Shown here: positions 5,517 through 42,374 of the stretch, one piece after another
How positions within the stretch are numbered: the stretch's first letter is position 1
Layout of the letters: each line of letters opens with the position of its first letter
Assembly (NCBI GenBank): GCA_021155885.1
Contig: JAJNBB010000010.1
Coordinates: 1 to 61,897, forward strand
Source: Fibrobacteria bacterium
Lineage (GTDB): Bacteria; Fibrobacterota; Fibrobacteria; UBA11236
Direction of reading: 5' to 3'
Length of the DNA stretch: 61,897 bases
Translations under genes and position numbers: made by a program
The notes under the pieces: model-generated
What the model was told of the DNA's origin: nothing
Databases searched by the model: none
The model's input: only the letters and a program-made list of their open reading frames with translations

Positions 5517-6884
5517 ATGATGAACCAAAGCCTTGTTATCGTCGATGATGATCAGGACGTGCTGGACTCTTTGACCCGCGCGCTCGAGGACCTCGAGTGC
5601 GATCTCCGCAGCTTCAACAACCCCATCGAGGCCCTGGAAGGCATCTGCGCGGCGCCGCCCCAGGTGGTCGTGACCGATCTCCGGATGCCCGGGATGGGCG
5701 GTCTGGCGCTGCAACAATCGCTGAAGGATCTCAACCCCGACATCCAGGTGATCCTCATCAGCGGGCACGGATCGGTGGACGAAGCCGTTTCGGCCATGAA
5801 AAAAGGCGCCTACGATTTCATTTCCAAGCCGTTCAGGACCGAGGAGATCCTCGCGGTCGTCCAGCGCGCTTTCGAGAAAACCGCCCTGTTGCGCGAGAAT
5901 TTCCTGCTGCGCGAAAAGCTCCGCGCGAGCCGCGTCCCGAATTTCGAGGTCGGAAAAAGCCGGATCATCCGGGAATTGCTGGAGGAAGCGGTCCGGGCCG
6001 CGGCCAGCGAGGCCACCATTTTGATCCTCGGGGAATCGGGCTCCGGAAAACAAATCCTGGCCAACTACATCGTCGCGAATTCGCCGCGCGCGCCATATCC
6101 CTTCATCGAGGTCAACTGCGCGGCCATCCCGGATAACCTCATCGAAGCCGAATTGTTCGGGTATAAAAAGGGAGCCTTCACGGGAGCCTACCAGGACAAG
6201 AAAGGCAAGTTCCAGGAAGCCCACAAGGGGACGATTTTCCTGGACGAGATCGGCGAGGTGCCCCTGAGCGTGCAGTCGAAGCTTCTGCGCGTTTTGCAGG
6301 AGGGCGAGGTGAGCCCGGTGGGAGGCGCGACGCAAAAGGTGGACGTGCGCATTCTCGCGGCCACCAACAAAAACCTCCGCAAGATGGTCGCGGACGGGCT
6401 GTTCCGCGAGGACCTTTTCTACCGCCTGAACGTCATTCCCCTCCAGATCCCGCCCTTGCGCCAACACCCGGAGGATCTGCCGGCCTTCATTTCTCACTTT
6501 CTGGCGAAGTACAGCGCCAAAAACCGCCGGGAAAATCTCTCCGTCAGTCCCGAGGCGATGCTGCTGATGGAGCGCTATCTATGGCCGGGCAACGTGCGCG
6601 AGCTCGAGAACGCCATGGAGCGCGCCGTCATTTTGTGCCAGGGGGACCAAATCACTCCCAAGAACCTGCCCCCGGAGCTCAGCGGGGACTTGAGCGAGAC
6701 GCAGGAATTCCTGTTCCGCAGCGGGTCCACCCTCGAGGAAATGGAATTGCTGATCATCCAGAACGCGCTCAGGCGCAATCATGGAGACCGTGGAAAAACC
6801 GCCCACGAACTGGGCATCGGGGTGCGGACGCTTTACCGCAAGGTCATGCAGATCAGCTCGCGCGACCCCGAAGCGATCGCCTAG
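5517..6884 (+). CDS. Sigma54-dependent response regulator (NtrC family)
   Basis: Receiver domain (VVTDLRMPGMGG), AAA+ domain with GESGSGK and GAFTGA, and a C-terminal Fis-type HTH. Start set at MMNQS. Confidence 0.85.
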   Translation: MMNQSLVIVDDDQDVLDSLTRALEDLECDLRSFNNPIEALEGICAAPPQVVVTDLRMPGMGGLALQQSLKDLNPDIQVILISGHGSVDEAVSAMKKGAYDFISKPFRTEEILAVVQRAFEKTALLRENFLLREKLRASRVPNFEVGKSRIIRELLEEAVRAAASEATILILGESGSGKQILANYIVANSPRAPYPFIEVNCAAIPDNLIEAELFGYKKGAFTGAYQDKKGKFQEAHKGTIFLDEIGEVPLSVQSKLLRVLQEGEVSPVGGATQKVDVRILAATNKNLRKMVADGLFREDLFYRLNVIPLQIPPLRQHPEDLPAFISHFLAKYSAKNRRENLSVSPEAMLLMERYLWPGNVRELENAMERAVILCQGDQITPKNLPPELSGDLSETQEFLFRSGSTLEEMELLIIQNALRRNHGDRGKTAHELGIGVRTLYRKVMQISSRDPEAIA

Positions 6885-8026
6885 GCGGGTTCGCCCGCCG
6901 GCAGCACGATCGTGAAACGGGTGCACCCGAACTGCGAGACGCAGTGGATCGTTCCGCCGTGCTCCTCGATGAGCTTGCGCGCCAGCGCAAGGCCCAGGCC
7001 GGTCCCCTTGGATCCGTCCTTGGTCGTGAAGAACGGCTCGAAGATATGGGCGAGCAGGTGGTCGGGAATGCCGCCCGCGTTGTCCTCGAACCGGATCTCG
7101 ATCTGGTTCTCGCGGCGCCGCGCGTAAATCGAAATCCGCTTGGCTTCCCCGGTTTCCCACTCGGAGAAGGCGTCGCGGGCGTTCGAAATCAGGTTGTGCA
7201 AGACCGACTCGATCTGGGTGTAGTTCCCCCGGATGCTCAGGCTTTCGTCGGCGTATACCGTCACCTCGATGCCGCGCGTCATCAGCTGCCGGTCCATGAA
7301 CAGGAACGCTTCTTCCAGCAGGCGCTTGACCGTGAAGTTTTCCATGCCCTGAATCGCGTCCTTGCGGGAATATTGCAAAAGGTGGTTCAGGACGCGCTGC
7401 ATGCGCTCCACGCCGCGAATCACCGATTCGGTGGCCTTGAGCCCCGCCGCCTTGTCCGCCTCTCCCTCGCGGTTGAACAACTTGCGGAGATACTCCGCCT
7501 CAAGCAGGACGCTGGCCAGGGGGTTGTTCATCTCGTGCGCGAGGCCCGCGCTGAGCGTGCCCAGCACCATGAGCTTGTTGGCGTGAAAAAGCTGCCGCTC
7601 CAGCAGCACCTGCTGCTCCCGGTTCAGCGAGAAGCCCATGTAGCCCACGATCTTCCCGTCGCGGCGGATCGGGGAGATGGTCAGGTGGATGTGGATGGCG
7701 CTGCCGTCCACGGCGCGGTTCACCAGATTGCCGCGCCAGGTTTCGCCGCGGGTGATGGTCTTCCACATGTCCTTATAGAGGCTTTCCGGCGTCGAGCTGG
7801 ACCGGATGAGCCGCTGCGTCTTCCCCAGAATCTCGCTCTCGGACTGAAACTTGTACAGACGCAGGTAGGCGTCGTTGACGCGCACCAGCCTGCCGTCCGG
7901 ATCCGTGATGTTGATGGCGTAGTCCGCCTGGGTGAAAGCGTCCAGCAGCATGGAGCGGTGTCTCCCGCCGGAGAAACCTACTCTGCGTAAATCCGCCTTC
8001 CAAGCGGTCGCGACGGAGCCTGTCAT
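6881..8026 (-). CDS. PAS-domain sensor histidine kinase
   Basis: PAS domain (INITDPDGRLVRVNDAYLRLY), H-box AGLAHEMNNPLA and HATPase_c (GTGLGLA). ATG 8026 is preceded by GGAGGT. Confidence 0.8.
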   Translation of the reverse strand: MTGSVATAWKADLRRVGFSGGRHRSMLLDAFTQADYAINITDPDGRLVRVNDAYLRLYKFQSESEILGKTQRLIRSSSTPESLYKDMWKTITRGETWRGNLVNRAVDGSAIHIHLTISPIRRDGKIVGYMGFSLNREQQVLLERQLFHANKLMVLGTLSAGLAHEMNNPLASVLLEAEYLRKLFNREGEADKAAGLKATESVIRGVERMQRVLNHLLQYSRKDAIQGMENFTVKRLLEEAFLFMDRQLMTRGIEVTVYADESLSIRGNYTQIESVLHNLISNARDAFSEWETGEAKRISIYARRRENQIEIRFEDNAGGIPDHLLAHIFEPFFTTKDGSKGTGLGLALARKLIEEHGGTIHCVSQFGCTRFTIVLPAGEPA

Positions 8027-8255
8027 GGCGTTACCTCCACGGAGCGTAAACCTCTGCCGGCGCCGGAAATCCGGCCGCCGCAAAACACATCCTCGGGAAA
8101 TCCGACCGGATGCCTCCCTGAATGATACATTTCGCAACAAAGTTATTAGAGAGACTTACAAATCTTGACAGGCAATCGTTTCAACGCACGAATTGTTCCC
8201 ATTTTAAACAAAACAAGCCATTTTACCAATCGCGCGTTGGAGGCTCTCCGGGGAA

Positions 8256-8982
8256 TTATTGCGTGAACCACCCTAGCGTCGTCCATTCCGCGAACCAGCG
8301 CGGGAGTTGCTTCGCGAGGCGGTCCAATGCCGGCGGCGCCAGGCCCTCGGCGGCCCGCGCGCAGGCGGCCTCCAGCGCCTCCCCTTCGGACAGGGCGCCG
8401 AGCAACCGAAAACGGACGCGGTCGAGGCGTTGAGGGGCCACCCCTCCCTCGACGTTCCGGTAAACCACCCAGTAACCTTTGCGCTTCACGAAGCGCGGAA
8501 CGAAATCTTCCTCCGCGTCCAGGCAAAGGCCGCGCCGGGTCATCAGGTTCCAGTCCTCCTCCAGCACGGTGACATGCGGTTGCAGCCGCAGCCTGGGCCC
8601 TCCGGCGGCCGCGAGCGTCTCGGTCCGTGGCGGCGGGGCCGCCGGGGCATGGAACGCGCGATTGAAGGCCTGATCCAGGCGGGCGATCTGCGCCGTGCGC
8701 GGGTCGTTCCAGCGCGTGTCGGCGCGCACGAAGTCCGGCAGCCGGTCGCCCAGCGCGTCGAGGTAAGGCGCGCGCGAAGGGTGGCGGGTCAGGTACGCGG
8801 AGGCCAGCCGGTTGAAAACCGGATAGGTCAGCGCGTGCGCGCGGAAGCAGGTCGGCTTCGAGGCCCGGCGCCAGCGCATCTCCCCCGCCGTCGAAACGCT
8901 CGCCCTCGAAATCATACGGAGCCCGCACCGCGGACCCGAAGGCCTCCTGCAGCGCGCGCAGCCGCGCGGGCGCGGACTTCAT
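8256..8982 (-). CDS. bufC: DUF2063 family protein (BufC/HvfC-like MNIO partner), apparently frameshifted near its 5' end
   Basis: ORF 8256..8915 has DUF2063-like sequence (TYPVFNRLASAYLTRHPS...LPDFV..., C-terminal WFAEWTTLGWF). An ATGA-coupled start at 8982 in another frame encodes MKSAPARLRALQEAF, a typical DUF2063 N-terminus. Confidence 0.7.
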
Positions 8983-9803
8983 ACCCTGCTCCGGTGTTGG
9001 CGCGCGGAGAGCGCCTCGGCATGCGCCTCGGGGAACGGCGGGATGTTCTCGTCCCACTCGAGCAAGGTGGGAAAGCCCCCGCCGGATCGCCGCCAGGCGC
9101 GGCGATAGAGTTCCCACACCGCGTCGCACACGGGGGCGTCATGGGTATCCAGCAAGGTTCCGTCGGGATTCCGGTGATGGCCCGCGAGATGGCATTGCAG
9201 CACCCGGTCCCACCGGATCGAATCCACGTAAGCTTCGGCATCGAAAAGGTGATTGACCGAGGACACGTAGATGTTGTTGAGGTCGAGCATGTAATGGCAA
9301 CCCGACAACTCGAGGACGCGGTTGTTGAACTCCCACTCCGTCATTTCGGAACTGGCGAAGGCGACGTAACTGGAAAGGTTTTCGAGGCCGAAGGGCCGCC
9401 CGATGAAATCCTGCACGCGCGCCGCCCGCTCGGCGACGTAGCGGGCGTTCTCCTCGGTGTAGGGAAACGGCAGCAAGTCGTGGTGCTGCACGTCGTGGGC
9501 CGTCGTCCAGCAAAAGTGGTCGGTGAAGTACGGCGCGTCCGTGAAATCCGCCAGCTCCTTCAGGCGGCGCAGGTAGGCCTCATCCAGCGGCGCGGCGGAG
9601 GCGATCCCCAGCGAAACTCCGTGGAGCACGACGGGATAGCGCGAGAGCACCTTCTCGAGGTTTCGTTTCGGCAGCGGGGCGTCGCCCATGAAGTTCTCCG
9701 AAATGATCTCGAAGAAATCCACCTTGGGCCACGCCTCGAAGAGGTGGCGGTAATACGGGATGCGCAGCCCCAGCCCGATGGCTTCTCGCGAAATCGTTTT
9801 CAT
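8979..9803 (-). CDS. bufB: DUF692 / MNIO (multinuclear non-heme iron oxidative) RiPP maturase
   Basis: Full-length DUF692 pattern: GLGLRIPYY...FFEIISENFM...VLHGVSLGI...FTDHFCW...LENLSSY...MLDLNNIYVS...HLAGH...DTHD...TLLEWD. Confidence 0.9.
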   Translation of the reverse strand: MKTISREAIGLGLRIPYYRHLFEAWPKVDFFEIISENFMGDAPLPKRNLEKVLSRYPVVLHGVSLGIASAAPLDEAYLRRLKELADFTDAPYFTDHFCWTTAHDVQHHDLLPFPYTEENARYVAERAARVQDFIGRPFGLENLSSYVAFASSEMTEWEFNNRVLELSGCHYMLDLNNIYVSSVNHLFDAEAYVDSIRWDRVLQCHLAGHHRNPDGTLLDTHDAPVCDAVWELYRRAWRRSGGGFPTLLEWDENIPPFPEAHAEALSARQHRSRV

Positions 9804-9864
9804 GGGTATCCGGGTCGTTCCTCAAAAGCGTTCCGGGCGGTCATGCGCCCGGAACGCCGAAGGA

Positions 9865-10242
9865 TCAATGGCCCTTGCAGCCTCCCAGCCCCTTGCACTC
9901 GTTCTGGCCCTTGCAGCCATGGGCTTCCCCGGCTTTGTCGGCCGCGATGCCGTTTTTCTTGGCGGCTTTCTTGAGATCCTTCTTCGACATGGCGCATCCG
10001 CCCTGGCCCTTGCAGGCGTTCAGGCCCTTGCATTCATGTCCCGCCTTGACCGTATCGGCGGAAGCCGAGCCGCAGCCGCCCTTGCCCTTGCACGAGCTCT
10101 TGCCCTTGCAGCCGCTTTTTTCCTTGACGGTGTCGGGGGCCGCCGGGGAGGCGTGCACGGTGGCGGTGGAGACGAGGCCCGCGGCGATGCCGGCGATGGC
10201 CAATCGGCTAAAAAACGGGGTGAGAAGAGTGGAATTTTTCAT
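9865..10242 (-). CDS. bufA: Signal-peptide-bearing Cys-rich RiPP precursor (bufferin/HvfA-like), 9 Cys in three C-x5-C-x5-C modules
   Basis: Start at MKNSTLL. Signal peptide ends VHA|SP. Modules are GCKGKSSCKGKGGCG, ECKGLNACKGQGGCA and GCKGQNECKGLGGCKGH. Lies immediately upstream of DUF692. Confidence 0.8.
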   Translation of the reverse strand: MKNSTLLTPFFSRLAIAGIAAGLVSTATVHASPAAPDTVKEKSGCKGKSSCKGKGGCGSASADTVKAGHECKGLNACKGQGGCAMSKKDLKKAAKKNGIAADKAGEAHGCKGQNECKGLGGCKGH

Positions 10243-10338
10243 ATACGTCCCTTTTTGAATTTTGAAGGTAGGTTTCCAGGTTTCCAAGGCGGCCGAACCA
10301 GGCCGCCCTCTACTTAAGTCGCGGCGAAAACGAAAGCG

Positions 10339-10797
10339 TTACGCCCTCCCCCGTTTTTTTATCAGCAGCCTGTCCAGCGAAAGGCTCCCCGCGCCCGCGA
10401 TCACCAGCCAGAGCAGCAGGAGGAGATAGAGGAACTCGGAAAATCCCGCCAGATCCGAAAATCCCCGCAGCTCTTCCCTCCGGGCCGTCAGAATGGCCAC
10501 GATCATGATGACGGACAGGGGAAGGGCGGCCAGGCGGGTGAAAAGACCGGCCAGCACGAGGATCCCGAAGGCGAACTCGCTGGTGGCGACCAGATGCGCC
10601 TGAAAGGCGGGAGCGGGCAGACCGAGGGCCGTGAAAAAGCCGATCACCTTGTCGATATGCTGCAATTTTCCCCAGCCCGCTTCGATGAAAACCACGCCCA
10701 AGGTGACCCGCGCCGCCAGCGGCGGCAGCCAGTCCAGGGTTTTCAAAAATTCCCTCAGTTGATCGAAGCGATTGCGGAAAAGAAAAAGCGTGTTCAT
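10339..10797 (-). CDS. DoxX family membrane protein
   Basis: 152 aa with 4 TM segments and the DoxX-type N-terminal motif ARVTLGVVFIEAGWGKL. Confidence 0.85.
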   Translation of the reverse strand: MNTLFLFRNRFDQLREFLKTLDWLPPLAARVTLGVVFIEAGWGKLQHIDKVIGFFTALGLPAPAFQAHLVATSEFAFGILVLAGLFTRLAALPLSVIMIVAILTARREELRGFSDLAGFSEFLYLLLLLWLVIAGAGSLSLDRLLIKKRGRA

Positions 10798-10893
10798 GAA
10801 GACTCCTGGCTGCGGGTCCGGCGAAGGCCCCGGGGGTGAAACGATAGCGGCCCTCCCGGCCGTCCGCGGTAAGTCCCCCGCCGGCTCCCGACG

Positions 10894-11208
10894 TTACGGC
10901 AAATCGGGCCCCTCGCGTTTGCCCTTCCCGGAATCTCCGGAATCCTTCGGGAGGACGCCCTCCCTTTCGAGGAAACGCAGGGTCCGGTCGAGCATCTCGG
11001 CCGGGGGCGGGGTTTCCTCGCGGAAAGCCGCCGGATTCGCCGCCATCCGGTATAACCGCACGAAACCCCGGCAGTCCTTGCAGCCCATCAAATGCACCCG
11101 AAAGCGGAGCCGGACGATCCCGGGCAGGCCGCCTTCCAGGTAATCGTAAACGAATTCCCGGATCTGCCCGCACGGATACGCGAGGGTATAAAAAATCGAA
11201 TCGGTCAT
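10894..11208 (-). CDS. Zinc-finger (zf-HC2, HxxxCxxC) anti-sigma factor, cytoplasmic
   Basis: C13...H39LMGC43KDC46 motif and no TM segment. ATGA overlap with the upstream ECF sigma gene. Confidence 0.75.
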   Translation of the reverse strand: MTDSIFYTLAYPCGQIREFVYDYLEGGLPGIVRLRFRVHLMGCKDCRGFVRLYRMAANPAAFREETPPPAEMLDRTLRFLEREGVLPKDSGDSGKGKREGPDLP

Positions 11209-11855
11209 GCCGCTCCCTTCCGATTAGTCGGTCCGGCGGCCATTTTGTTTCGGACCCATTCCACGATTTGTTTTCGGGTCCGGTGCAAAAGCACCCGGAC
11301 GTTCTCGGGGGAAATCCCCAGCATCGCCGCCACCTCTTCCCCGGAAAATCCCTCCACGTCGCGCAGGCGGTAGACCTCGCTTCCCGGCGGGACCAACAGC
11401 CGGATCGCCTCGGCGATCAGGATCTCGGCCGCGCTCTTCGCGAGAACGCGATCCGCCGAGGCCTCCCAGGGCGTCAGCGCGCTCCAGGAATCCGCGCGCG
11501 CCTCCGGATCCGCGGCGCTTTCCTCCGGTTCGAGGGCTTCTTCCCTCCGCCGGGTTTTCACGGCGATTTGATCGCAAATCTTGTGGTAGGCCAGGCTATA
11601 GATCCAGGTGGTCAGCTTCGACCCTCCCTGAAATCCGGCCAGCCCCTTATGGACGGCCAGGTAGGTCTCCTGCAGCACCTCCTGGCACTCCTCCCGGGAA
11701 GAAAAGTGCCGCCGGGCGAAGGCGAACAGGGAATCATGCGTGAGGCGGACCAGGCGGTCGAACATCCGGGATTTCATTTCCGCGTCCAGAAGCGCCGCCA
11801 AGAACTCCGGCGCGTTCAATTCCGCGAAAGCGTCCCGTCCTTGCCGTCCCTGCAT
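11205..11855 (-). CDS. ECF-type RNA polymerase sigma-70 factor
   Basis: Region 2 (QEVLQETYLAVHKGL...TWIYSLAYHKICD) and region 4 (YRLRDVEGFSGEEVAAMLGISPENVRVLLHRTRK). An alternative start at M27 is possible. Confidence 0.85.
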   Translation of the reverse strand: MQGRQGRDAFAELNAPEFLAALLDAEMKSRMFDRLVRLTHDSLFAFARRHFSSREECQEVLQETYLAVHKGLAGFQGGSKLTTWIYSLAYHKICDQIAVKTRRREEALEPEESAADPEARADSWSALTPWEASADRVLAKSAAEILIAEAIRLLVPPGSEVYRLRDVEGFSGEEVAAMLGISPENVRVLLHRTRKQIVEWVRNKMAAGPTNRKGAA

Positions 11856-11878
11856 GGCGGGAAGATAACTCGGCCCAT

Positions 11879-11905
11879 AAAAAAAGCGACTCCCCGGGAG
11901 TCGCC
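11879..11905 (-). terminator. Rho-independent terminator of ssrA
   Basis: Minus strand GGCGACTCCC-GGGGAGTCGC hairpin followed by a T-run, 13 nt after the tmRNA CCA end. Confidence 0.7.
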
Positions 11906-11917
11906 TTCTTTCATCCG

Positions 11918-12287
11918 TGGTGGAGGCGGCGGGAATCGAACCCGCGTCCGAAATGAACTTACCGATCGCTCCTACATGCTTTTCCCTTGATTTGATCTCG
12001 TCTCCGGAGTCGCCCTAAGGATCGGCTCCCCCGAAGACCAGCCCGCTGATCTCGACCCCGCATCGCAGGCGGCCTGCGGGATCCAGCCTCAGAGGTATGC
12101 CAGATCCCGCGGCGCTGAGACGCCATCCGCGAGACCCGTGGCGCCTAGTGTTTAGTTAGGCAGCCAATGCGTAAGAATTGGATTCTTCAGCATTTGTGTT
12201 TTCCCTAGAGTGATTAACGAGGCCAACTAGAGATCCTCGGCATGCGACTTTCGACTCGCCCGATCCCGTCGAAACCTTTACGCCCCC
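11918..12287 (-). ncRNA. ssrA: tmRNA (SsrA); predicted tag AEESNSYALAA
   Basis: 5' end GGGGGCGTAAAGGTTTCGACGGGA and 3' end GGACGCGGGTTCGATTCCCGCCGCCTCCACCA, with a G3:U pair in the acceptor stem. Internal reading frame GCT GAA GAA TCC AAT TCT TAC GCA TTG GCT GCC TAA. Confidence 0.9.
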
Positions 12288-12435
12288 GGAATCACGAACC
12301 ATCGAACCTTAAAGTTACAAAATTCGGGACTTCCTGGCATTCTTCATATTTTCATCTTTCCGCTTTCCGCTTTCCTTTTTGAGGCCTGTGTCGAGGACGT
12401 TCGGCCCGCCCGGCCGTCTGCGCTTTTTCTCCGTT

Positions 12436-12489
12436 TTCTAAACCTGGATTTATCCCTAGGCTCCCTTCTAAACCTCGGTTAATTCCAGG
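12436..12489. repeat. Two ~25-nt imperfect direct repeats (TTCTAAACCTsGrTTwATyCC(T)AGG) spaced 30 bp
   Basis: Copies at 12436-12460 and 12466-12489, in the ssrA / OMP intergenic region. Confidence 0.3.
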
Positions 12490-12556
12490 ATTCTCCTGCC
12501 TCCCTAACTTCGAAGCAAAGCCGCCGTTCCGGCAGGCTTCGAATCCAGGAGGCTCC

Positions 12557-32817: not shown

Positions 32818-33600
32818 TCAAAAGTCCTTCCGGGCCAACCGCCCCAGAAACGCAAGCGCAGGCAAGGCCACCCAAAGCACCAGGGCGCCGAGCGCGGTGA
32901 AGATCCCGAACCCCGTGCCGAAGAAGCGCCTGAAAATGGCGCCCGTGTACCCGAGCATGACCGAGGCGTCCAGTTGCATGAGCACGAGGATGCGCTCCAA
33001 ATCAATCGGATTCAGCAGGATGGCGGTTATGATAAACCGATCCAGGGGGTAGTCGGCCAGGAAGGTCAAAAGAAACAGCAAAAGGCCGTCGTAGAGAAAG
33101 GCCATGGAGAGCCAGAGAAACAACGCGGCCGCGAAACCGCGCAGGGGATCCTCGATCGTGACGGCGATGAGGAAGGCCATCGAAAGAAAGGAAAGGTGGA
33201 GCAAGAGGCCCCCGCCGAGAAACAGGCCCAGCAAGCGCGCGTCTCCCCCATCCTGAAAGCCGAACCAAAGGGTGGGGATGCCGAGGCCGAACGCGAAAGC
33301 GGCGCACAAGGCGATTCCCAAGGCCACCCCCTGCCCCGCCAACAGCGATCTTCGCCCGATGGGCTGGGCCAGCATCAGTTCGTGGAAGCCGCGAGACTGG
33401 TGAAAATAAAGAACGCCGAAGACCAGCGAGCACAAGGGGACGAGGAACAGTACGAGGCTCAAAAGCGCGCCGAGACCCGCGGAAACGCTGGGCGCATAGT
33501 TCATCAGGCCGTAACCGGCCGCGAGATAAAACAGGAAGTACGCCGCGATGAAGCGGCTGCGCAGCAAATCGCGCAGGCAGAAGCGCAGCACCGTCATCAT
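32818..33600 (-). CDS. nosY: ABC-2 type permease NosY
   Basis: 6-TM ABC-2 permease. ATGA-type 4-nt overlap with nosF. Lies within the nos cluster. Confidence 0.75.
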   Translation of the reverse strand: MMTVLRFCLRDLLRSRFIAAYFLFYLAAGYGLMNYAPSVSAGLGALLSLVLFLVPLCSLVFGVLYFHQSRGFHELMLAQPIGRRSLLAGQGVALGIALCAAFAFGLGIPTLWFGFQDGGDARLLGLFLGGGLLLHLSFLSMAFLIAVTIEDPLRGFAAALFLWLSMAFLYDGLLLFLLTFLADYPLDRFIITAILLNPIDLERILVLMQLDASVMLGYTGAIFRRFFGTGFGIFTALGALVLWVALPALAFLGRLARKDF

Positions 33601-34337
33601 ACCGCGGCCTCCGCATCGCTCTCGTGCACCGTTTCTTCCAGATATCCAGCCACATGACGCTCAAACAAGGACGGATTGCTTCCCATTCCCGGGACATCGA
33701 TCGCCGCGACGCATTCCGCCTTGCCCTCGCGCAAGAAGACCAGGCGATCGGAGATTTCCCATAGATCGTCGAGCCGGTGCGTGGTCAGGAGAATGGCCTT
33801 TCCCCGCGCTTTTTCCTCGCGCAAGGCCTCCATCAACCGCAGTCGGGAAGCCGGGTCGAGGCTCGCGGTGGGCTCATCCAGCACCAGCAGGCTCGCATCG
33901 AAGGCAAGCGCCAGCGCGGCGTTGACCTTCTGCTTCATGCCGCCCGAGAGGGTCTTCCATTTCTGGTCGAGGAAGGCGGTGATCCCCAGCCGTTCGCCAT
34001 GCCCGAAACGGGCGCGAACGCTCCGTATGCTTTCCACCAGCCGGGTAATCTCGCGCACGGTCAGGTTTTCGGGGAAGCCGGGAACCTGCGGCATGTAGCC
34101 GATGTGGCGGCGGTAGGCGGGCCCAAGGCGGACGTCCTCGCTCATGACGTGAATCTTCCCGCCATCGGGCACGTGCAAGCCGAGCAGGCAGCGCATGAGG
34201 GTCGTCTTTCCGGACCCGTTGGGCCCCAGGATGGCGGTCACCGTACCCGGCAACGCCTCGAGATTCACTCCCCGTAAAACTTCTTTTTTCCCGTAAGCCT
34301 TGCGAAGGCCCGCGATGCTAAGCGATGCCGTGTTCAT
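33597..34337 (-). CDS. nosF: ABC transporter ATP-binding protein NosF
   Basis: Walker A GPNGSGKTT, signature LSGGMKQK and Walker B LLVLDEP. 4-nt overlaps on both sides. Confidence 0.85.
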   Translation of the reverse strand: MNTASLSIAGLRKAYGKKEVLRGVNLEALPGTVTAILGPNGSGKTTLMRCLLGLHVPDGGKIHVMSEDVRLGPAYRRHIGYMPQVPGFPENLTVREITRLVESIRSVRARFGHGERLGITAFLDQKWKTLSGGMKQKVNAALALAFDASLLVLDEPTASLDPASRLRLMEALREEKARGKAILLTTHRLDDLWEISDRLVFLREGKAECVAAIDVPGMGSNPSLFERHVAGYLEETVHESDAEAAV

Positions 34338-35602
34338 GTTTGCTTTCTGGTTACGCTCGCGCGACCCCGCGGAAGCGGCATGCGGGGCTCCGCATCCTCC
34401 AGGGAGGCCGGCGAAAGCGTGGGGAAAAGTCGTTCCAGGGCGTTTAGCAAGGTCACGAAATGACTTCGCAACAGGGAGGCTGCCTGGGGATGACGCAGCA
34501 TCAGGGCGGGAAAAAGTTCAACCGGGCGGTGCGGAACGTCTCCCGTTCCGTCCCGGTCCAGGTCCCAGCCCGCGTACCGATCCCACGTATTGCGACGAAA
34601 AATGTTGCTGTTACCCATGCTGGGATTGTAGGCCACGTCGAACGTGTTGCTTTCGAAGCGATTGTTTTCGAAAAGGTTCCGGTCGCAATCCGCCAGGATG
34701 CGCAACGCCCAGCCATTGCGGCGAAAATCGTTTCCCGAAACCACCAGGTCGCTGCTGCCTTCCTGAAAGACGGCTACGGTATTATGGGAGAAGGTGTTCC
34801 GCTCGATCCGGCTGTCCCGCAGGGACTTGAGCAGGAGCCCATAGCTGGCCGGCCCCCAGTTCCGCTCGAAGCGATTATCCCGCATGTCCACGCGATCGGA
34901 GTACATCACCGCCACGCCCGCCCCGTTCTCGCGAAAGACGTTGCGCTGGTAGCTGTTTCCGTTGGAGTACATGAAATGCAATCCGTAACGTGCATTACCT
35001 TCGCAGACGTTTCCGCTCACGAAAGTGTTCCCGGTGAATTCGAGGTAAATCCCGTCCCGGTGTCCCTGAACATGATTGTCGGTGATGGTCAGGCTGTCGC
35101 TTTTCCAGAAATGCAGGCCGTTTCCGTTGGAAAGCTCCCCGCTGCGCAGTCCCTCGAAGCGATTCCCCCGGATGACCGCGCCGACCGCCTGAAGGCCGTA
35201 CACGCCGAAGAATGCCCGCTCGAACCGGTTTTTCTCGATATGGACGCCGCGTACCCGGGAGATCCAGATGGCGCCGCTTTCCCGGAGATGATTCACGCCG
35301 ACATTGCGAAAGGTAAGCCCGATGACGGCGACCCCGTCGGCCCGGATGTCGAGGATGGTTTGCCCGCCACGGGCATCGAGAACGGCGCCGGGTTCTCCCA
35401 GAAGGGTGACCTGCCGGCTCGCGACAAGGCCGGATTCATGGTAAAGTCCGGCCGTCACGAGCAAGGTATCGCCCGGTTCGGCCGCGGCGAGGGCCGCGGC
35501 GACGGTTCGATAAGCCTGCCCCGCCCCAACGTGAAGAGACTCGGCGCCTGATGCCTGCGCCAAGAACGCCGCCGCGAACGGGAGGAGATGCGGTAAGCGC
35601 AT
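34334..35602 (-). CDS. nosD: Periplasmic beta-helix copper-binding protein NosD
   Basis: Signal peptide MRLPHLLPFAAAFLAQASGA and repeated right-handed beta-helix units (N.F..N..G....S..N....N). Start at ATG 35602 rather than 35635. Confidence 0.85.
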   Translation of the reverse strand: MRLPHLLPFAAAFLAQASGAESLHVGAGQAYRTVAAALAAAEPGDTLLVTAGLYHESGLVASRQVTLLGEPGAVLDARGGQTILDIRADGVAVIGLTFRNVGVNHLRESGAIWISRVRGVHIEKNRFERAFFGVYGLQAVGAVIRGNRFEGLRSGELSNGNGLHFWKSDSLTITDNHVQGHRDGIYLEFTGNTFVSGNVCEGNARYGLHFMYSNGNSYQRNVFRENGAGVAVMYSDRVDMRDNRFERNWGPASYGLLLKSLRDSRIERNTFSHNTVAVFQEGSSDLVVSGNDFRRNGWALRILADCDRNLFENNRFESNTFDVAYNPSMGNSNIFRRNTWDRYAGWDLDRDGTGDVPHRPVELFPALMLRHPQAASLLRSHFVTLLNALERLFPTLSPASLEDAEPRMPLPRGRASVTRKQT

Positions 35603-35610
35603 GCGTGACC

Positions 35611-36693
35611 TCAGCGGTTTGCCAGATCCGGCCATGTCATGATTTCCCCGCCCAGGCCTTCCTGGAACGCGCGCACGGAATCCGCCGAGGCAAAAGCCGC
35701 GAGTCCGCCGCCCATGGGACTGGCAACGTTCTCACCGGAGAGGAAGAATGCCTCCTCGGCGGACAGGAAGGGCGTCTCGGGACGGCTCCAGTCCGAAACA
35801 TATACCCGCTCCCCGGCGCGGAGGGGCGCCGTTTTTTCGTCCTGCAGCAGGCATTCGATGGCGTCGTACTTGAGTACCTTGCCGGTCGTGCTCACGCGTT
35901 GCGCGGCGAAGCCTTTCTGAACCAGCGTCATCTTGCAGTAATGGCAGGCGTCTTCGCCCCAAAAGATGGGGGCCGCTTCCTGCCCGCCGCAAGCCAGGAT
36001 CAAGAACGCCGAAGCAAGCACCAAACCGGAACGCTTGCCAGCGGCCGGGCCGCGGGTCAAACGCCGGTCGCGCCATGTCCACAGCACGGCGCCGAAGATC
36101 AGCAGGCCCGCGGCGAGCAGGAACCAACCGCCGGATGCCGGCCACGAAGCGGATTCGAAATTGAGCACGCTACCCGGGCCGATGAGGGGCGGCTGAAAGC
36201 TCGCACCCGGCACCTTGATGGCGGCCTTCGGGTCGAGATTGTGGCCATAGTCGTAGCCCCAATGCCACATGTCGGCAATCCCGACAATCCCGGCAAGCGC
36301 GAAGACCCCCAACAACGATGTGGCGGACCAAAACCTGGGGCGAAAGGCGACGAGCAGGCACAGGACGCCGAGCGCCTGGATCAGCGGGCGCATGAAACCG
36401 AGCTCCGGGATGGAGTCAGGAACGATTTCCCGCATCCCGATGTAATGATTAAGCTGGTTGATAATGGTGAGATCGTGGGGATTCTCGCCGGTGATGGTGT
36501 GCGCCCAGATCAGCATGCCCATGCCCTCGGGATACTGGGGGGCGTCCAGGGTGATGCGCCAGATCGGCAGGAAGGGGGCGGCCAACAAGGCCGCCGCCGC
36601 CAGCACCAGCAATAGGGAGGGTATGCGAATCCTGAGACGCGCGGGCGCTTCTTCCGCCGTCCTTACCGACCGTCTCCCGAGACTCAGCAGCAT
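35611..36693 (-). CDS. nosL: NosB-like polytopic membrane domain fused in frame to a NosL copper-chaperone domain
   Basis: N-terminal ~210 aa are membrane-embedded (PQYPEGMGMLIW...). C-terminal ~150 aa start with a lipoprotein-like signal LVLASAFLILAC, followed by the NosL motif EDACHYCKMTL...KYDAIECLL. Confidence 0.7.
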   Translation of the reverse strand: MLLSLGRRSVRTAEEAPARLRIRIPSLLLVLAAAALLAAPFLPIWRITLDAPQYPEGMGMLIWAHTITGENPHDLTIINQLNHYIGMREIVPDSIPELGFMRPLIQALGVLCLLVAFRPRFWSATSLLGVFALAGIVGIADMWHWGYDYGHNLDPKAAIKVPGASFQPPLIGPGSVLNFESASWPASGGWFLLAAGLLIFGAVLWTWRDRRLTRGPAAGKRSGLVLASAFLILACGGQEAAPIFWGEDACHYCKMTLVQKGFAAQRVSTTGKVLKYDAIECLLQDEKTAPLRAGERVYVSDWSRPETPFLSAEEAFFLSGENVASPMGGGLAAFASADSVRAFQEGLGGEIMTWPDLANR

Positions 36694-36703
36694 ACCACCC
36701 CCC

Positions 36704-38698
36704 TTACTTCTTCTTGCCGGAAGGCTTCACTCCACCCGTAGAGTAGGTGATGGGCACGCGCTCGCCCGGCGGGGAGACCCGCAAGTAGCCCTGCATTTCC
36801 TGATGCAAAGCCGAGCAGAAGTCGGTGCAGTAAAACGGGATGATGCCTGCCCGGTTTGCCACGGTCATAAGGGTCCTTGTTTGGCCCGGCATGATCAAAA
36901 GCTCGGAGGTTTGGGCGCCCATTACCGAGAACCCATGCGGAACGTCCCAGTCCTGCTCAAGGTTGGTTACGTGCCAATAGATCGTGTCCCCCACGTTGAT
37001 CCCCTCGATGTTATCCGGCATAAAATGGCTCCGGATGCTGCTCATGTAAACGTGGATGGTCCGCCCCTTACGCTCGACGCGCGCTTCGTCTTCCTTCTTG
37101 ATGGCATGCGGGTGGTGGTTGTCCGCCAGGGCATACATTTTCAGGCTATTCGGCGCGACCTTCTCCGCGGGAATCGCCTGCGCATAGTGCGGCTCGCCGT
37201 GCGTCGGGAAGTCGAGCAGCATTTTCATCTTCTCGCCGGAAATGTCGATCAACTGGGCCGAATGGGCGAGCTCGGGACCGGTGGGAAGGTATCGATCCTT
37301 AGTGATCTTGTTCAGGGCGATGACGTACTTTCCATACGGCTTGCGCGTGTCGCCTCCGGGTATCATCAAGTGACCGATGCTGTAGTACACGGGAATGCGA
37401 TCCACAATCTCCCAGGTGCCCAGCTTCCACTTCACGATTTCCGAGGAAAGAAACATCGACGTGTAGGCGTTTCCCCTGCCGTCGAACTCGGTGTGAAGGG
37501 GCCCGAGGCCCGGTTGGTCCACGACACCGGCCAGCACGGCCTCGTACTTGAGGACGGGAATTCCCTCGACGTCACCGTCGAACGTCCTGCTCTTGATGGC
37601 CTGGATCATTTTTTTGAACGAGTGGACCGGAATTGAGCTGGAGAGCTTGCCTCCGGCGACGATGTACTCGCCGGTGGGGTCAACATCGACGCCATGGGGA
37701 GATTTCGGGGTGGGAAGGTAAAACACGACATCCGGACAGTCCGCGGGCGCCAACATGGTGACCTTGCGGCGGATTTCGCTCTTCGCGGTCTGGGCGGATT
37801 CGTCCATAAGATTGCTGTAGTGCAAGCCGTCCACCTGTTGGCCCTTGCCCTGGGCGACGCATTCCTCCGCCCGTTTCCAATGGACCGCGGTGACGAAATC
37901 CTTGTCCAGCTGGGACGCGTTCACTTCCTTGAGCGTGTGGGCGCGTTCGGCATTGTAGGTCGAGAAGAAGGACCACTCGCGGGAAGGTCCCTTGCCGGAG
38001 CGCGTCTTGTCGTAGTCGAGGCCGGGAAGCAACAACTGGAAGGCCACCGCCATGCGCCCGGTCTTCTTGTCGACGGAAATGTAGGACAGGGCGCCGCGGA
38101 AGGTCTTTCCGTGCGTCTCGATGGGAACGCTGGCCTGGGGGATGGGCACGGAGAAGCGGGTACCGGCCACAAGGTACTCCGTATTTTCGGTCAGGTAGGG
38201 AGAGCTGTGATTGCCCGCGCTATTTGGAATTTCAATCGTCTCCACCGTTTCGAAGGTGCGCAGATCGATGCGGGCGATGCGCGGCGTATTGTTCCCGTTG
38301 ATAAAGAGCCAGCGGCCGTCCTGCTCGCCATCGGTAAGGGACAACTGGGGGTGATGCGCGTCGTCCCAGGGGATGAAGCCATAACTGGTGTTCATGAGCG
38401 GCTTGGTCTCCTCGGAGTATCCATAACCGTTTTCCGCATTCTGGGAAAACACGGGAATGACGCGCAGCGTGCGGCCGGAAGGCAGGCCGACCACTGAAAC
38501 CTGCCCGCTGAAGCCGCCCGAAAAGAATCCGTACAACTCGTCATGTTTGCCGGGAGCGACGTAAACCCGCTCCGCGGCGTCCTCCGCCAAGCCGGGAACG
38601 TCCTTGCCTTCGCGCTTGTTGCACGCTGTAAAAAGGCCCGCCGTCAGGCTGAGTACGAGAAGCGACATCCGTGCCGCCTTGGGGATCGACCTGCTCAT
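36704..38698 (-). CDS. nosZ: Nitrous-oxide reductase NosZ, clade II (Sec/lipoprotein signal)
   Basis: 664 aa. Signal peptide with lipobox LFTAC and no twin-arginine motif. Seven-bladed propeller His ligands and the C-terminal CuA site FYCTDFCSALHQEMQGY. Confidence 0.92.
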   Translation of the reverse strand: MSRSIPKAARMSLLVLSLTAGLFTACNKREGKDVPGLAEDAAERVYVAPGKHDELYGFFSGGFSGQVSVVGLPSGRTLRVIPVFSQNAENGYGYSEETKPLMNTSYGFIPWDDAHHPQLSLTDGEQDGRWLFINGNNTPRIARIDLRTFETVETIEIPNSAGNHSSPYLTENTEYLVAGTRFSVPIPQASVPIETHGKTFRGALSYISVDKKTGRMAVAFQLLLPGLDYDKTRSGKGPSREWSFFSTYNAERAHTLKEVNASQLDKDFVTAVHWKRAEECVAQGKGQQVDGLHYSNLMDESAQTAKSEIRRKVTMLAPADCPDVVFYLPTPKSPHGVDVDPTGEYIVAGGKLSSSIPVHSFKKMIQAIKSRTFDGDVEGIPVLKYEAVLAGVVDQPGLGPLHTEFDGRGNAYTSMFLSSEIVKWKLGTWEIVDRIPVYYSIGHLMIPGGDTRKPYGKYVIALNKITKDRYLPTGPELAHSAQLIDISGEKMKMLLDFPTHGEPHYAQAIPAEKVAPNSLKMYALADNHHPHAIKKEDEARVERKGRTIHVYMSSIRSHFMPDNIEGINVGDTIYWHVTNLEQDWDVPHGFSVMGAQTSELLIMPGQTRTLMTVANRAGIIPFYCTDFCSALHQEMQGYLRVSPPGERVPITYSTGGVKPSGKKK

Positions 38699-38731
38699 GA
38701 TCTTTTTCTCCTTTTTCCTGGTTGGTTTGTC

Positions 38732-39211
38732 CTACTGTCCGTCAACTTTTCTGAAGTACTCGAGGATCGCGCGGGCCTCCTCCTCGCTTACGCTCACCGA
38801 CATTTGGGTCATGTATTCAGCCAGCAACGCCTTCGCCACCGGATCCTTTTGGGTCATCTCGGTCGGATTCATGACCATGTTCATGATCCATTCCGGGGTG
38901 CGACGCTGGGTGACGCCGGCCAGGCCGGGTCCCACGTACCGCTGATCCAGCTTGTGACAGGCGGCGCAGGTTCCCGAAAAGATTTTTTCGCCCTTGGCCG
39001 CGAGACCCTCATCGAGCGCCCCCAGCGTGACCTTCTTGACCGGGCCGACGCCGCTCGCGCTTGCCGCCTCGGATTGGCCGGACTTTGCCTGGTTGTCTCC
39101 CCCACCCGCCTCGTCGGATTTGCCGCACGCCACGAGGAGGAAAGCCATCGCGAACAGGAAGGCTGCCGCGGCCGCTCTGGGTGATTTTTCGTACACGTTC
39201 CTGGTTTTCAT
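38732..39211 (-). CDS. Lipoprotein c-type monoheme cytochrome (nos-cluster cytochrome c)
   Basis: Lipobox LLVAC and heme motif CAACHKL with a distal Met region (MNMVMNPTEM). Lies directly upstream of nosZ. Confidence 0.8.
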   Translation of the reverse strand: MKTRNVYEKSPRAAAAAFLFAMAFLLVACGKSDEAGGGDNQAKSGQSEAASASGVGPVKKVTLGALDEGLAAKGEKIFSGTCAACHKLDQRYVGPGLAGVTQRRTPEWIMNMVMNPTEMTQKDPVAKALLAEYMTQMSVSVSEEEARAILEYFRKVDGQ

Positions 39212-41189: not shown

Positions 41190-42374
41190 TCATTTCCGGC
41201 CGCCCGGGAACCGGAACAGCATCGGGCCGAAGCGGCGCGCCCACAACGCCATCCCGCACAGCGCGAATGCCGAGGCCAGCGCGAGATGGAAGCTCCGCGC
41301 GCCCGTCCAGATCTCCGTGGAGACGCGCGTGGCGGCGGCGAGAGCCACGAGACCGCCGAACGCCAGCACCGTCTTGCGGGAGGACCCCAGCAGATCGACC
41401 CGTCCGCCGTGGGCGGCGATTACGCGCGAGGCTACGGACAGGGTCAGCCACAGCACGCCGGTGATAAAGACGATATGCTCCCAGGCCAGCAGGTAACGGG
41501 GTAGGAACACCGGCATCAGCATGCCCAATCCCATCAGCCAAAGCGCCCAGCGGGCCGCCGCGAGATAGGCAGGAAGGCCGCCGGGCACGCGGTGCAATCG
41601 AATTTGCGTGAACAGGAACCAGAGCCACACCGCGGCGCGCAGGCCGGAACCCAGCCGGACGGAAAGGGGGTAAACGGACACGTAAGCCTCCAGGCCGAAA
41701 CCCGCCAGAAAGAGCGCGGCCGCCGCGAGCAGCCCCCGCGTCCTGGTACCGTCCGACTTGAGCCGCTGCGGGTCGATGATTTCATTCGCGAACAATTTGG
41801 GCAACAGAAAGCCGCCGACCCCAAGGACCAGCATCAGCGGAAAGGCCTGGAATTGCAGCAAGGCACCCAGGCGGAAGGTCGGTCCCGAGACGTACCCCGC
41901 GAGACTCGCGAGGCGCAGCAAAGTCCCCGTCGTGTCGGCCAGCAGGGCGGCCGCGATGAACACGAAGAACGACGGCGGGTTTCCGCGCCTCTGGGGCCAT
42001 CGCCTCAGCATGAACACGGCGAAGTTCGCCAGGAGCGCCAGATGCATCCACTGCGCGACGAGGGGCGCGTTCGCCAGCGCCGCGGTCATCATCGCGAGCA
42101 AGCCGGCGGGAAACAACAGGAATTGCACGGGGCCCAGCGGGGCGACGCCATGCACCTTCGGCAACATGGTCCCCAAAAACCCGAAGACGAAGCACGACAA
42201 AAAGCCTTGTATTTGAAGGGTGGCGTGACTTTGGCCGGGGTAGGCGAAGGATTCAGGCCAAAAGAAGTGCGGAATCCATACTCCCAGCCCCACGGCGGCC
42301 CCCAGGAGCCCGAGGGGAAACAACACGCGATAGGGTTCCGCGCAGGCGGCCTTGAGCATCCACGGGTTACGCAT
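41190..42374 (-). CDS. nnrS: NnrS family membrane protein (NO-response heme-copper protein)
   Basis: 394 aa with ~12 TM segments and the N-terminal EPYRVLFPLG motif. Confidence 0.8.
   Translation of the reverse strand: MRNPWMLKAACAEPYRVLFPLGLLGAAVGLGVWIPHFFWPESFAYPGQSHATLQIQGFLSCFVFGFLGTMLPKVHGVAPLGPVQFLLFPAGLLAMMTAALANAPLVAQWMHLALLANFAVFMLRRWPQRRGNPPSFFVFIAAALLADTTGTLLRLASLAGYVSGPTFRLGALLQFQAFPLMLVLGVGGFLLPKLFANEIIDPQRLKSDGTRTRGLLAAAALFLAGFGLEAYVSVYPLSVRLGSGLRAAVWLWFLFTQIRLHRVPGGLPAYLAAARWALWLMGLGMLMPVFLPRYLLAWEHIVFITGVLWLTLSVASRVIAAHGGRVDLLGSSRKTVLAFGGLVALAAATRVSTEIWTGARSFHLALASAFALCGMALWARRFGPMLFRFPGGRK

Follow-up and report, generated by a model that had tools for sequence, protein, structure and literature searches.

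Bufferins, also termed captophorins, form a very large class of modified peptides that bind copper and were recognized recently. Thiooxazoles are present in Buf1 and Buf2, both of which are induced by copper; Buf1 binds copper, and buf clusters protect growth under copper stress (PMC11626156). BufB and BufC are both required and together sufficient for the modification of Buf1, the DoxX protein being dispensable (PMC11626156). Buf2 proteins have been described as having 6 or 12 Cys (PMC12452194), and in the Buf2 of Caulobacter modification is confined to the four central Cys, the first and the last remaining unmodified (PMC11626156). A survey found sigma and anti-sigma genes in Buf1 clusters and reported them absent from Buf2 clusters (PMC12452194). 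Odd numbers of modified residues also occur: fontiphorin has seven modified Cys (PMC13097082).

The 61.9-kb stretch of DNA analyzed here (the window) holds a group of minus-strand genes that, judging from its gene content, is a bufferin (captophorin) biosynthetic cluster (Table 1). A first-pass annotation had already assigned its precursor to the bufferin type, and this assignment holds: an MNIO maturase gene adjoins the precursor, and the precursor core is homologous to Buf2. In the direction of transcription the precursor gene, bufA (10242..9865), is followed by bufB (9803..8979) and by bufC, which starts at 8982 and overlaps the bufB stop codon. BufB scores 307.3 bits on the NCBIfam model MNIO_BufB (NF050167), 3 under the cut-off of 310, and 245 bits on the HvfB model against a cut-off of 360; the DoxX-family protein likewise stays below the NCBIfam HvfX cut-off (74.7 bits vs 80). 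The anti-sigma factor has H39-x3-C43-x2-C46 in an HLMGCKDC motif and lacks a membrane segment (maximum 19-aa hydropathy 0.49). We found no second precursor and no second MNIO in the 61.9-kb window. The window also contains a nos cluster, which demands copper.

Table 1. Features of the bufferin cluster and its surroundings, in window coordinates.
Feature	Coordinates	Strand	Evidence or remark
ssrA tmRNA gene	12287..11918	(-)	upstream of sigma gene
ECF sigma factor, 216 aa	11205..11855	(-)	Sigma70_r2 + Sigma70_r4_2; TIGR02937 83 bits
Promoter-like motif, third copy, GAAAC-N17-GACTAA	11224..11251	(-)	in sigma gene 3' end; 16 nt before anti-sigma ATG
Soluble ZAS-type anti-sigma factor, 104 aa	10894..11208	(-)	Pfam zf-HC2 37.1 bits
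Promoter-like motif, second copy	10870..10897	(-)	ends 73 nt before doxX ATG
DoxX/HvfX-family membrane protein, 152 aa	10339..10797	(-)	Pfam DoxX 80 bits
Promoter-like motif GTAAC-N17-GACTTA	10315..10342	(-)	ends 73 nt before bufA ATG; overlaps doxX stop
7-bp hairpin GGCGGCC-TGGTTC-GGCCGCC	10288..10307	(-)	predicted 5' end of bufA transcript; read from sequence
bufA-like precursor gene, 125 aa, nine Cys	9865..10242	(-)	ORF and translation; stop codon within range
Sec-type signal peptide, residues 1-31	10150..10242	(-)	rule-based prediction; cleavage after V-H-A
Accessory N-terminal module 1 GCKGKSSCKGKGGCG (C45, C51, C57), residues 44-58	10069..10113	(-)	absent or variable in relatives
Buf2-type core: module 2 (C71, C77, C83), 26-residue linker, module 3 (C110, C116, C122)	9868..10035	(-)	profile-profile alignment
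Conserved 26-residue linker AMSKKDLKKAAKKNGIAADKAGEAHG (the earlier "Lys-rich spacer")	9916..9993	(-)	fixed length, conserved sequence
13-bp G+C-rich hairpin	9827..9858	(-)	right after precursor stop, then UUUU and bufB ribosome-binding site
bufB, MNIO (DUF692) maturase, 274 aa	8979..9803	(-)	Pfam PF05114 319 bits
bufC (DUF2063/HvfC-type partner), frame broken by deletion	8256..8982	(-)	comparison with L001, L093, L095

Translation of the minus-strand frame yields the same 125-aa protein that had been described before, with nine Cys (positions 45, 51, 57, 71, 77, 83, 110, 116, and 122) grouped in three C-x5-C-x5-C modules. The earlier statement that KG follows seven of the nine Cys is also borne out; the K-C-G motif, in contrast, occurs 0 times. 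The modules had been called equally spaced, which is true inside each module, where a Cys falls at every sixth residue, but not between them: the distance is 14 residues from C57 to C71 and 27 residues from C83 to C110. The seven plus-strand copies of CCTTGCA that had been reported are present (at 9873, 9891, 9909, 10008, 10026, 10086, and 10104), and the window as a whole contains 12. The signal peptide, predicted by rule, has a basic n-region (K2, R13) and a maximum 15-aa hydropathy of 1.83 from residue 10, with V-H-A at positions -3 to -1 of the predicted cleavage site. Relatives keep xHA there and open with the same N-terminus, MKxxxLLxxLAIAGIAAGL. The mature region of 94 aa has a net charge of +11 and 19 Lys.

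Long open frames also run along the plus strand across the precursor region, and gene callers chose the opposite strand in two related loci (L093 and L097), as would be expected if the frame were no real gene and its Cys pattern a by-product of a GC-rich DNA repeat. Against this stand the substitution rates: compared with two syntenic orthologs, defined by synteny and by BufB identity (L093, 96%; L094/95, 86%), the whole gene has a dN/dS of 0.15 and 0.22 at a dS of 0.42-0.57, with values of 0.05-0.40 for the region of the N-terminal module. Moreover, more than 100 homologs retain the signal peptide and the Cys columns, and AAGGGA, which resembles a ribosome-binding site, stands 5 nt upstream of the ATG at 10242. 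The non-gene reading is thus effectively refuted, and we regard its probability as negligible. The Cys pattern is not a chance one, to judge from the invariant core Cys of the relatives and the nine Cys kept in the orthologs. Because both orthologs retain all nine Cys, in three modules, at low dN/dS, we conclude from the comparison that the nine-Cys form is translated, selected, and stable in the lineage of the window.

The three Cys triplets of the first-pass annotation exist, but they are not equivalent units; only module 1 is extra. When the profile of the core was aligned with that of canonical six-Cys Buf2 proteins using hhalign, all six Cys aligned with a probability of 99.3% (E 1.9e-20), and the alignment required only one insertion, of 20 residues, between core Cys three and four. 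Because hhalign matches all six Cys with this one insertion, modules 2 and 3 together with the stretch between them are, by homology, one conserved Buf2-type (Cys-Lys) domain spanning residues 70-125. The six core Cys are invariant in alignments of 53 and of 73 relatives. The Lys-rich stretch had been taken for a spacer separating two modules; it is instead an integral part of the Buf2 domain. Its length of 26 Cys-free residues is constant and its sequence conserved among members selected by pattern (consensus xMSxKDLxxAAKKxGxxxxKAGKAH), so that it is no loose spacer.

Structure prediction bears mainly on this linker. AlphaFold2 gave a mean pLDDT of 53 for the whole precursor and 61 for the core alone with 73 sequences, and the linker was the sole part to exceed 70 (moderately confident), being modeled as a strand, a helix (residues 87-97), a short helix, and a strand. 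The 20-residue insertion is therefore predicted to be largely helical; fold and Cys pairing, in contrast, are unsupported by models with so poor a pLDDT. A Foldseek search of the PDB with the core model returned no match below E 0.75, and a sequence search of the PDB with the precursor returned nothing meaningful.

Current family models pass over the precursor as well. Pfam contains no family matching it at E <= 0.01, and none that is relevant even at E <= 10. On the NCBIfam BufA2 model (NF050166) it scores 37.7 bits, under the cut-off of 60, and the seven other 26-residue-linker members that we scanned score 21-45 bits, all below the cut-off. Two canonical Buf2 proteins were scanned as well: P0058 reached 64.7 bits, and the short P0118 only 37.8. 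Because their scores fall below the BufA2 cut-off, members with the 26-residue linker are labeled hypothetical. They are, on this evidence, a conserved Buf2 branch that has a structured insertion and is overlooked by current annotation models.

A database search with the precursor returned 140 relatives (best identity 57%), about half of which show the 26-residue-linker pattern. We defined the subfamily by the pattern C-x5-C-x5-C-x26-C-x5-C-x5-C, so that the 26-residue length is itself a selection criterion; 56 proteins fitted the pattern initially and 95 after an exhaustive profile search. The loci that encode them have been assigned to Fibrobacterota, Myxococcota, and Planctomycetota; by the source names of its nearest precursor and BufB relatives, the window locus has Fibrobacterota affinity. 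Of the 95, those with one core have no N-terminal Cys in 67 cases, one in 5, two in 3, three in 10, four in 2, and five in 4; two further proteins have extra Cys C-terminal to the core, and in another two (P0241 and P0242) the whole core is duplicated, giving 12 Cys. Module 1 is thus an N-terminal accessory that varies in copy number across these relatives, with 0-5 Cys. The nine-Cys form had been described as a variant. It does depart from the published Cys numbers, but it is not unique: it accounts for roughly 10% of the subfamily (10/56 in the first set, 10/95 in the extended set) and is found in both syntenic orthologs. As far as the published literature was accessible to us, it lists no nine-Cys class of bufferins.

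A (T/K)EKSGCK start at a conserved position is common to most of the members that have N-terminal Cys, and it points to one ancestral gain of N-terminal Cys, with later expansion (P0001, P0009, L008) and decay; we read the single N-terminal Cys retained in P0006 and P0007 as decay. The nine-Cys forms in P0047 and in the canonical, three-module Buf2 protein P0087 are of independent origin. The earlier proposal that a module was gained through internal DNA repeats is plausible as far as duplication goes: the window gene contains three 66-nt copies with about 70% identity, the flank DTVK-x4-C is common to modules 1 and 2, and module 1 looks like a duplicate of module 2. Recent slippage is unsupported here, since nothing beyond a weak period-6 signal was picked up in the window gene by Tandem Repeats Finder; period-18 (six-residue) tandem arrays are clear in the relatives L008 and L083. 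The N-terminal Cys of relatives come in odd as well as even numbers, which makes a role as structural disulfide partners unlikely for them, and we infer that they serve as ligands, either modified or as thiolates.

Compared with Buf2/BufA2, whose founder is CCNA_03001 of Caulobacter vibrioides, the precursor agrees in its Sec signal peptide, which is a predicted one here, in a pair of C-x5-C-x5-C modules with abundant C-K-G/G-G-C, in a gene position directly upstream of an MNIO and its DUF2063 partner, and in having an MNIO whose catalytic Asp is followed by an acidic residue (PMC11626156, PMC13097082). It differs in the insertion that produces the fixed linker, in the added N-terminal three-Cys module, and in its sub-cut-off BufA2 score; the window cluster differs in having doxX upstream of the precursor and an ECF sigma factor with a soluble ZAS anti-sigma factor. 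As in the 12-Cys Buf2 proteins, the number of Cys was raised by internal duplication of C-x5-C-x5-C units; unlike them, the window protein gained half a domain (one module) at its N-terminus rather than a whole six-Cys domain. Buf1 (DUF2282) has the same enzyme set and the same presumed copper-buffering role, often with sigma and anti-sigma genes nearby, but it belongs to a different fold family and has four Cys. Its anti-sigma factor, NrsF, is a membrane protein (PMC12452194), whereas that of the window is a soluble ZAS protein. We rejected Buf1 membership, the precursor having no PF10048 match.

Oxazolin (HvfA), fontiphorin (FonA), and gonophorin resemble the window system in their MNIO and DUF2063 partner, often with DoxX, and in a Sec signal peptide (a predicted one in the window precursor), and the Lys-Cys captophorins have repeated Cys motifs that become 5-thiooxazoles. 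Their motif is K-C-G (EGKCG), however, whereas that of the window precursor is C-K-G. The maturases differ in the same way. In the Lys-Cys-type MNIO structure 3BWW the catalytic Asp is followed by Phe (ERDF), whereas in the window BufB the catalytic Asp251 is followed by the acidic Glu252 (EWDE). Cys-Lys-type MNIOs have Asp at this position, a rule linking the acidic residue to Cys-Lys substrates was proposed from BufB2 modeling and FonB mutagenesis, and FonBC did not process C-K-type motifs (PMC13097082). E252 after D251 fits this substrate rule. HvfA, which had been suggested as a comparator for the precursor, is of the wrong type (EGKCG, Lys-Cys), and membership in the HvfA/oxazolin group is ruled out by the motif (no K-C-G) and by the MNIO residue (Glu vs Phe).

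The bufC frame of the window is interrupted by a 95-nt frameshifting deletion at the 8841|8840 junction, and tblastn places BufC in two frames. A metagenome contig that is 99.7% identical to the window (L001) has the 95 extra nt and encodes an intact 273-aa BufC. This protein reaches 57.8 bits on PF09836, whereas the remnant in the window, with 26.6, falls short of the cut-off. The segment is present in L093 and L095 too, and because all three contigs carry it, the deletion in the window is, by this comparison, the derived state. It takes out BufC residues ~48-79, which form the conserved DUF2063 core. If the deletion is biological and not an assembly artifact, the window strain may make unmodified precursor, given that Buf1 modification needs BufC (PMC11626156).

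The bufA-bufB-bufC order recurs in both orthologous loci and in two others, L012 (Phycisphaerales) and L015 (Myxococcales), where a precursor of the same type immediately precedes bufB-bufC. Other relatives have different surroundings. Many Fibrobacterota copies are located downstream of metH, and no MNIO was found within 6 kb of the Fibrobacterota precursors L003, L004, L006, L007, L089, and L092. At five loci (L009-L011, L013, and L020) a solo MNIO gene converges on the precursor gene and no neighboring DUF2063 gene was detected, and in L087 an ECF sigma/anti-sigma pair follows the precursor. A cusCBA-like operon for heavy-metal RND efflux has a lipoprotein member, L091, as its fifth and last gene, a position that we take to be comparable to that of CusF and that lends independent support to a metal role. 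Below 86% identity, the closest BufB relatives are L096 and L097 (71-73%), which are paired with a different, seven-Cys lipoprotein precursor. No tmRNA gene was found beside the orthologous loci.

We think it probable that the precursor is a Sec-exported bufferin (captophorin) of the Buf2 type that is thiooxazole-modified via BufB and BufC and buffers periplasmic copper. We favor copper buffering because the composition of the cluster and the order bufA-bufB-bufC match those of bufferin sets, with further support from the homology of the core to Buf2, the acidic E252 of BufB, the same gene order in L012 and L015, the orthologs that keep nine Cys under purifying selection, and the efflux-operon relative L091; counting against this explanation are the sub-cut-off BufA2 and MNIO_BufB scores, the lack of a Pfam hit, the broken bufC, and the orphan relatives. 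We infer the chemistry, the choice of modified Cys, copper binding, and the regulatory logic as follows. Specific Cys would be oxidized in the cytoplasm to copper-binding 5-thiooxazoles by BufB with its DUF2063 partner BufC, and Sec would then export the product as a small periplasmic copper-buffering protein. If the Caulobacter Buf2 is a guide, C71 and C122, the outermost core Cys, would be disulfide-bonded to each other, and C77, C83, C110, and C116 would be the ones converted to thiooxazoles; C45, C51, and C57 could add up to three more ligands.

The lesion in bufC would also fit a protein that binds metal through unmodified Cys thiolates, a periplasmic metal-binding protein or chaperone of the metallothionein or CusF kind for which modification is dispensable or has been lost in the window strain. 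So would the many orphan Fibrobacterota relatives at their conserved place downstream of metH without an MNIO nearby, the relative that ends the cusCBA-like operon about where a metal chaperone gene is expected, and the copper-demanding nos cluster in the window. Yet the window, L093, L094/95, L012, and L015 all put the precursor directly upstream of bufB-bufC, and bufC is intact in L001, L093, and L095. Furthermore, copper binding by Buf1 needed the heterocycles (PMC11626156), and surveys find many orphan bufferin genes without concluding that their products are unmodified (PMC12452194). We therefore judge a thiolate protein, the main rival reading, to be rather unlikely. We also consider unlikely a more specific scheme in which the N-terminal C-x5-C tail of a distinct, unannotated Buf2 branch, altered in copy number by duplication and slippage, tunes metal capacity, and in which the Fibrobacterota proteins, largely without a DUF2063 partner, are left unmodified or are modified via a solo MNIO and might store or chaperone copper in the periplasm, NosZ being one possible recipient, instead of acting purely as a detoxifying buffer. 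Finally, the small size, strong positive charge, and Cys richness of the mature region are what one would expect of a secreted antimicrobial or defensin-like peptide; this we find very improbable, given that the cluster has no immunity, dedicated export, or protease genes, that a predicted Sec signal peptide is combined with a bufferin-type enzyme set, that the homology to Buf2 is clear, and that one relative is tied to a metal efflux operon. The thiooxazole-modified bufferin remains our preferred reading.

The basic picture of bufferins is left unchanged by these data; the window protein is a real but modest variant and no new kind of system. What the subfamily offers is a natural series in which the proteins are alike in other respects but have 6, 7, 8, 9, 10, or 11 Cys, suited to two questions: the local rules by which an MNIO modifies Cys, and how metal stoichiometry relates to the number of modules.

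The cluster also contains putative regulatory elements. Matches to G(T/A)AAC-N17-GACTNA number three in the window, where 0.07 are expected and 0/100 shuffles reach three, and all three are on the minus strand within the bufferin cluster. L093 and L094 share all three sites, with diverged spacers; conservation of the third copy is weaker evidence because it lies inside coding sequence. Elsewhere, one match precedes the sigma gene in L008 and one precedes the precursor in L087. We read the motifs as candidate promoters of the adjacent ECF sigma factor. The sigma factor probably drives expression of the cluster, restrained by the cytoplasmic zinc/thiol (ZAS) anti-sigma factor, and would act via the GTAAC-N17-GACTTA promoters before the anti-sigma gene, doxX, and bufA. 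The conserved ECF/ZAS motifs make this a testable circuit, unlike SigF-NrsF in Caulobacter.

A generic scan of positions 8000-12500 for sigma-70 promoters and terminators gave background levels and missed the features at issue. The 7-bp hairpin ahead of bufA is presumed to lie where it does relative to the -10 element of the candidate promoter. The hairpin after bufA has a minimum free energy of -35.3 kcal/mol (z -5.7), and 0/200 shuffles fold as well. It would attenuate read-through into bufB-bufC, leaving the precursor in excess. By eye, L093, L094, and L012 each have a hairpin at this position, near-identical in sequence in L093 but different in the other two.

The sequence motif G(T/A)AAC-N17-GACTNA was observed three times against an expectation of 0.07, and all three copies lie within the bufferin cluster. 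The orthologous loci keep copies of this motif although their spacers have diverged; judging from sequence, these are probably ECF-sigma promoters of bufA, doxX, and the anti-sigma gene. The cluster also contains a hairpin just downstream of the precursor gene. There is a hairpin at the matching position in L093, a syntenic ortholog, with a sequence near-identical to that in the window, and in two further related loci, L094 and L012, with sequences that differ from it. As a predicted element, this hairpin is likely an attenuator that would set the ratio of precursor to enzyme.

Features in and around the bufferin cluster and the nitrous-oxide reductase genes (window coordinates)
Feature	Position	Strand	Details
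Very stable 13-bp hairpin	9827-9858	minus	z -5.7; between precursor stop and bufB
G(T/A)AAC-N17-GACTNA, three copies	10315-10342, 10870-10897, 11224-11251	minus	motif count
Nitrous-oxide reductase cluster (cytochrome c, nosZ, NosL-domain protein, nosD, nosF) plus NnrS gene	33597-39211, 41190-42374	minus	
95-nt deletion in bufC	8840-8841	minus	relative to L001 (99.7% identical), L093, L095
tmRNA gene (ssrA)	11918-12287	minus	tag AEESNSYALAA

In the window, the bufferin cluster begins directly after the tmRNA gene. In L093, whose BufB is a 96% ortholog, similarity to the window ends at the start of the cluster beside the tmRNA gene, and an AlpA/HTH/phage-integrase block (L093 2335-4145) lies upstream instead; at L094, plsY and merR-like genes occupy the upstream side. 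Given these differences among the three loci, the ssrA-side flank is variable, as expected for an integration hotspot.

Compared with L001, L093, and L095, BufC in the window has lost its DUF2063 core and is shifted in frame through the deletion in its gene. With the shifted frame open as far as 8146, gene-calling software would nonetheless predict a full-length protein. The neighboring bufB gene also differs from its L001 counterpart: the window is set apart from L001 by 13 substitutions, 11 of which crowd into a single 180-nt stretch of this gene (9444-9621) near the region of the bufC deletion, which suggests either strain-level recombination or a chimeric assembly.

A distance of about 24 kb separates the bufferin locus from the nitrous-oxide reductase cluster and the NnrS gene. 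As NosZ is a copper enzyme, this organism has a stake in how copper is managed in its periplasm.

Relatives of the precursor are found in other gene neighborhoods. In five loci from Fibrobacteria MAGs (L009, L010, L011, L013, and L020), metH is followed by the precursor gene and then by a convergent solo MNIO of the BufB type (318 bits, EWDD motif). Because no DUF2063 partner gene was detected near these pairs, this layout hints at partner-independent maturation or at a partner encoded elsewhere. In L091, a lipoprotein of the 26-residue-linker subfamily (6001-6327) is the last gene of a cusCBA-type operon (OEP / CusB-like / CzcB-like / RND-pump), starting 25 nt past the pump gene.

Among BufB relatives below 86% identity, the nearest (71-73%) are paired with a different precursor type (L096 4362-4709 and L097 6639-6938). 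This precursor is a lipoprotein that has six additional Cys and contains H-x-C-x-G-x-N-x-C-K-G-H-S-Y-Q-E-G-K-G-V as a motif. In two 12-Cys proteins, P0241 and P0242, the complete 26-residue-linker domain occurs twice in tandem, with an amphipathic VDxAKLxxLKAxL tail after each; these proteins are this branch's counterpart of the published 12-Cys Buf2 proteins. Period-18 tandem DNA arrays encoding (CKGKDG)n-like N-terminal repeats occur in L083 (5611-5811), L017, and L008 (308-394). Since these carriers comprise Opitutaceae canonical Buf2 as well as one Fibrobacteria relative, the C-x5 repeats at the N-terminus have expanded as a recurring theme within the family. The spacer between the precursor and sigma genes of L008 (about 740-920) is filled by a long run of ~7-nt GCTGACC-like tandem repeats.
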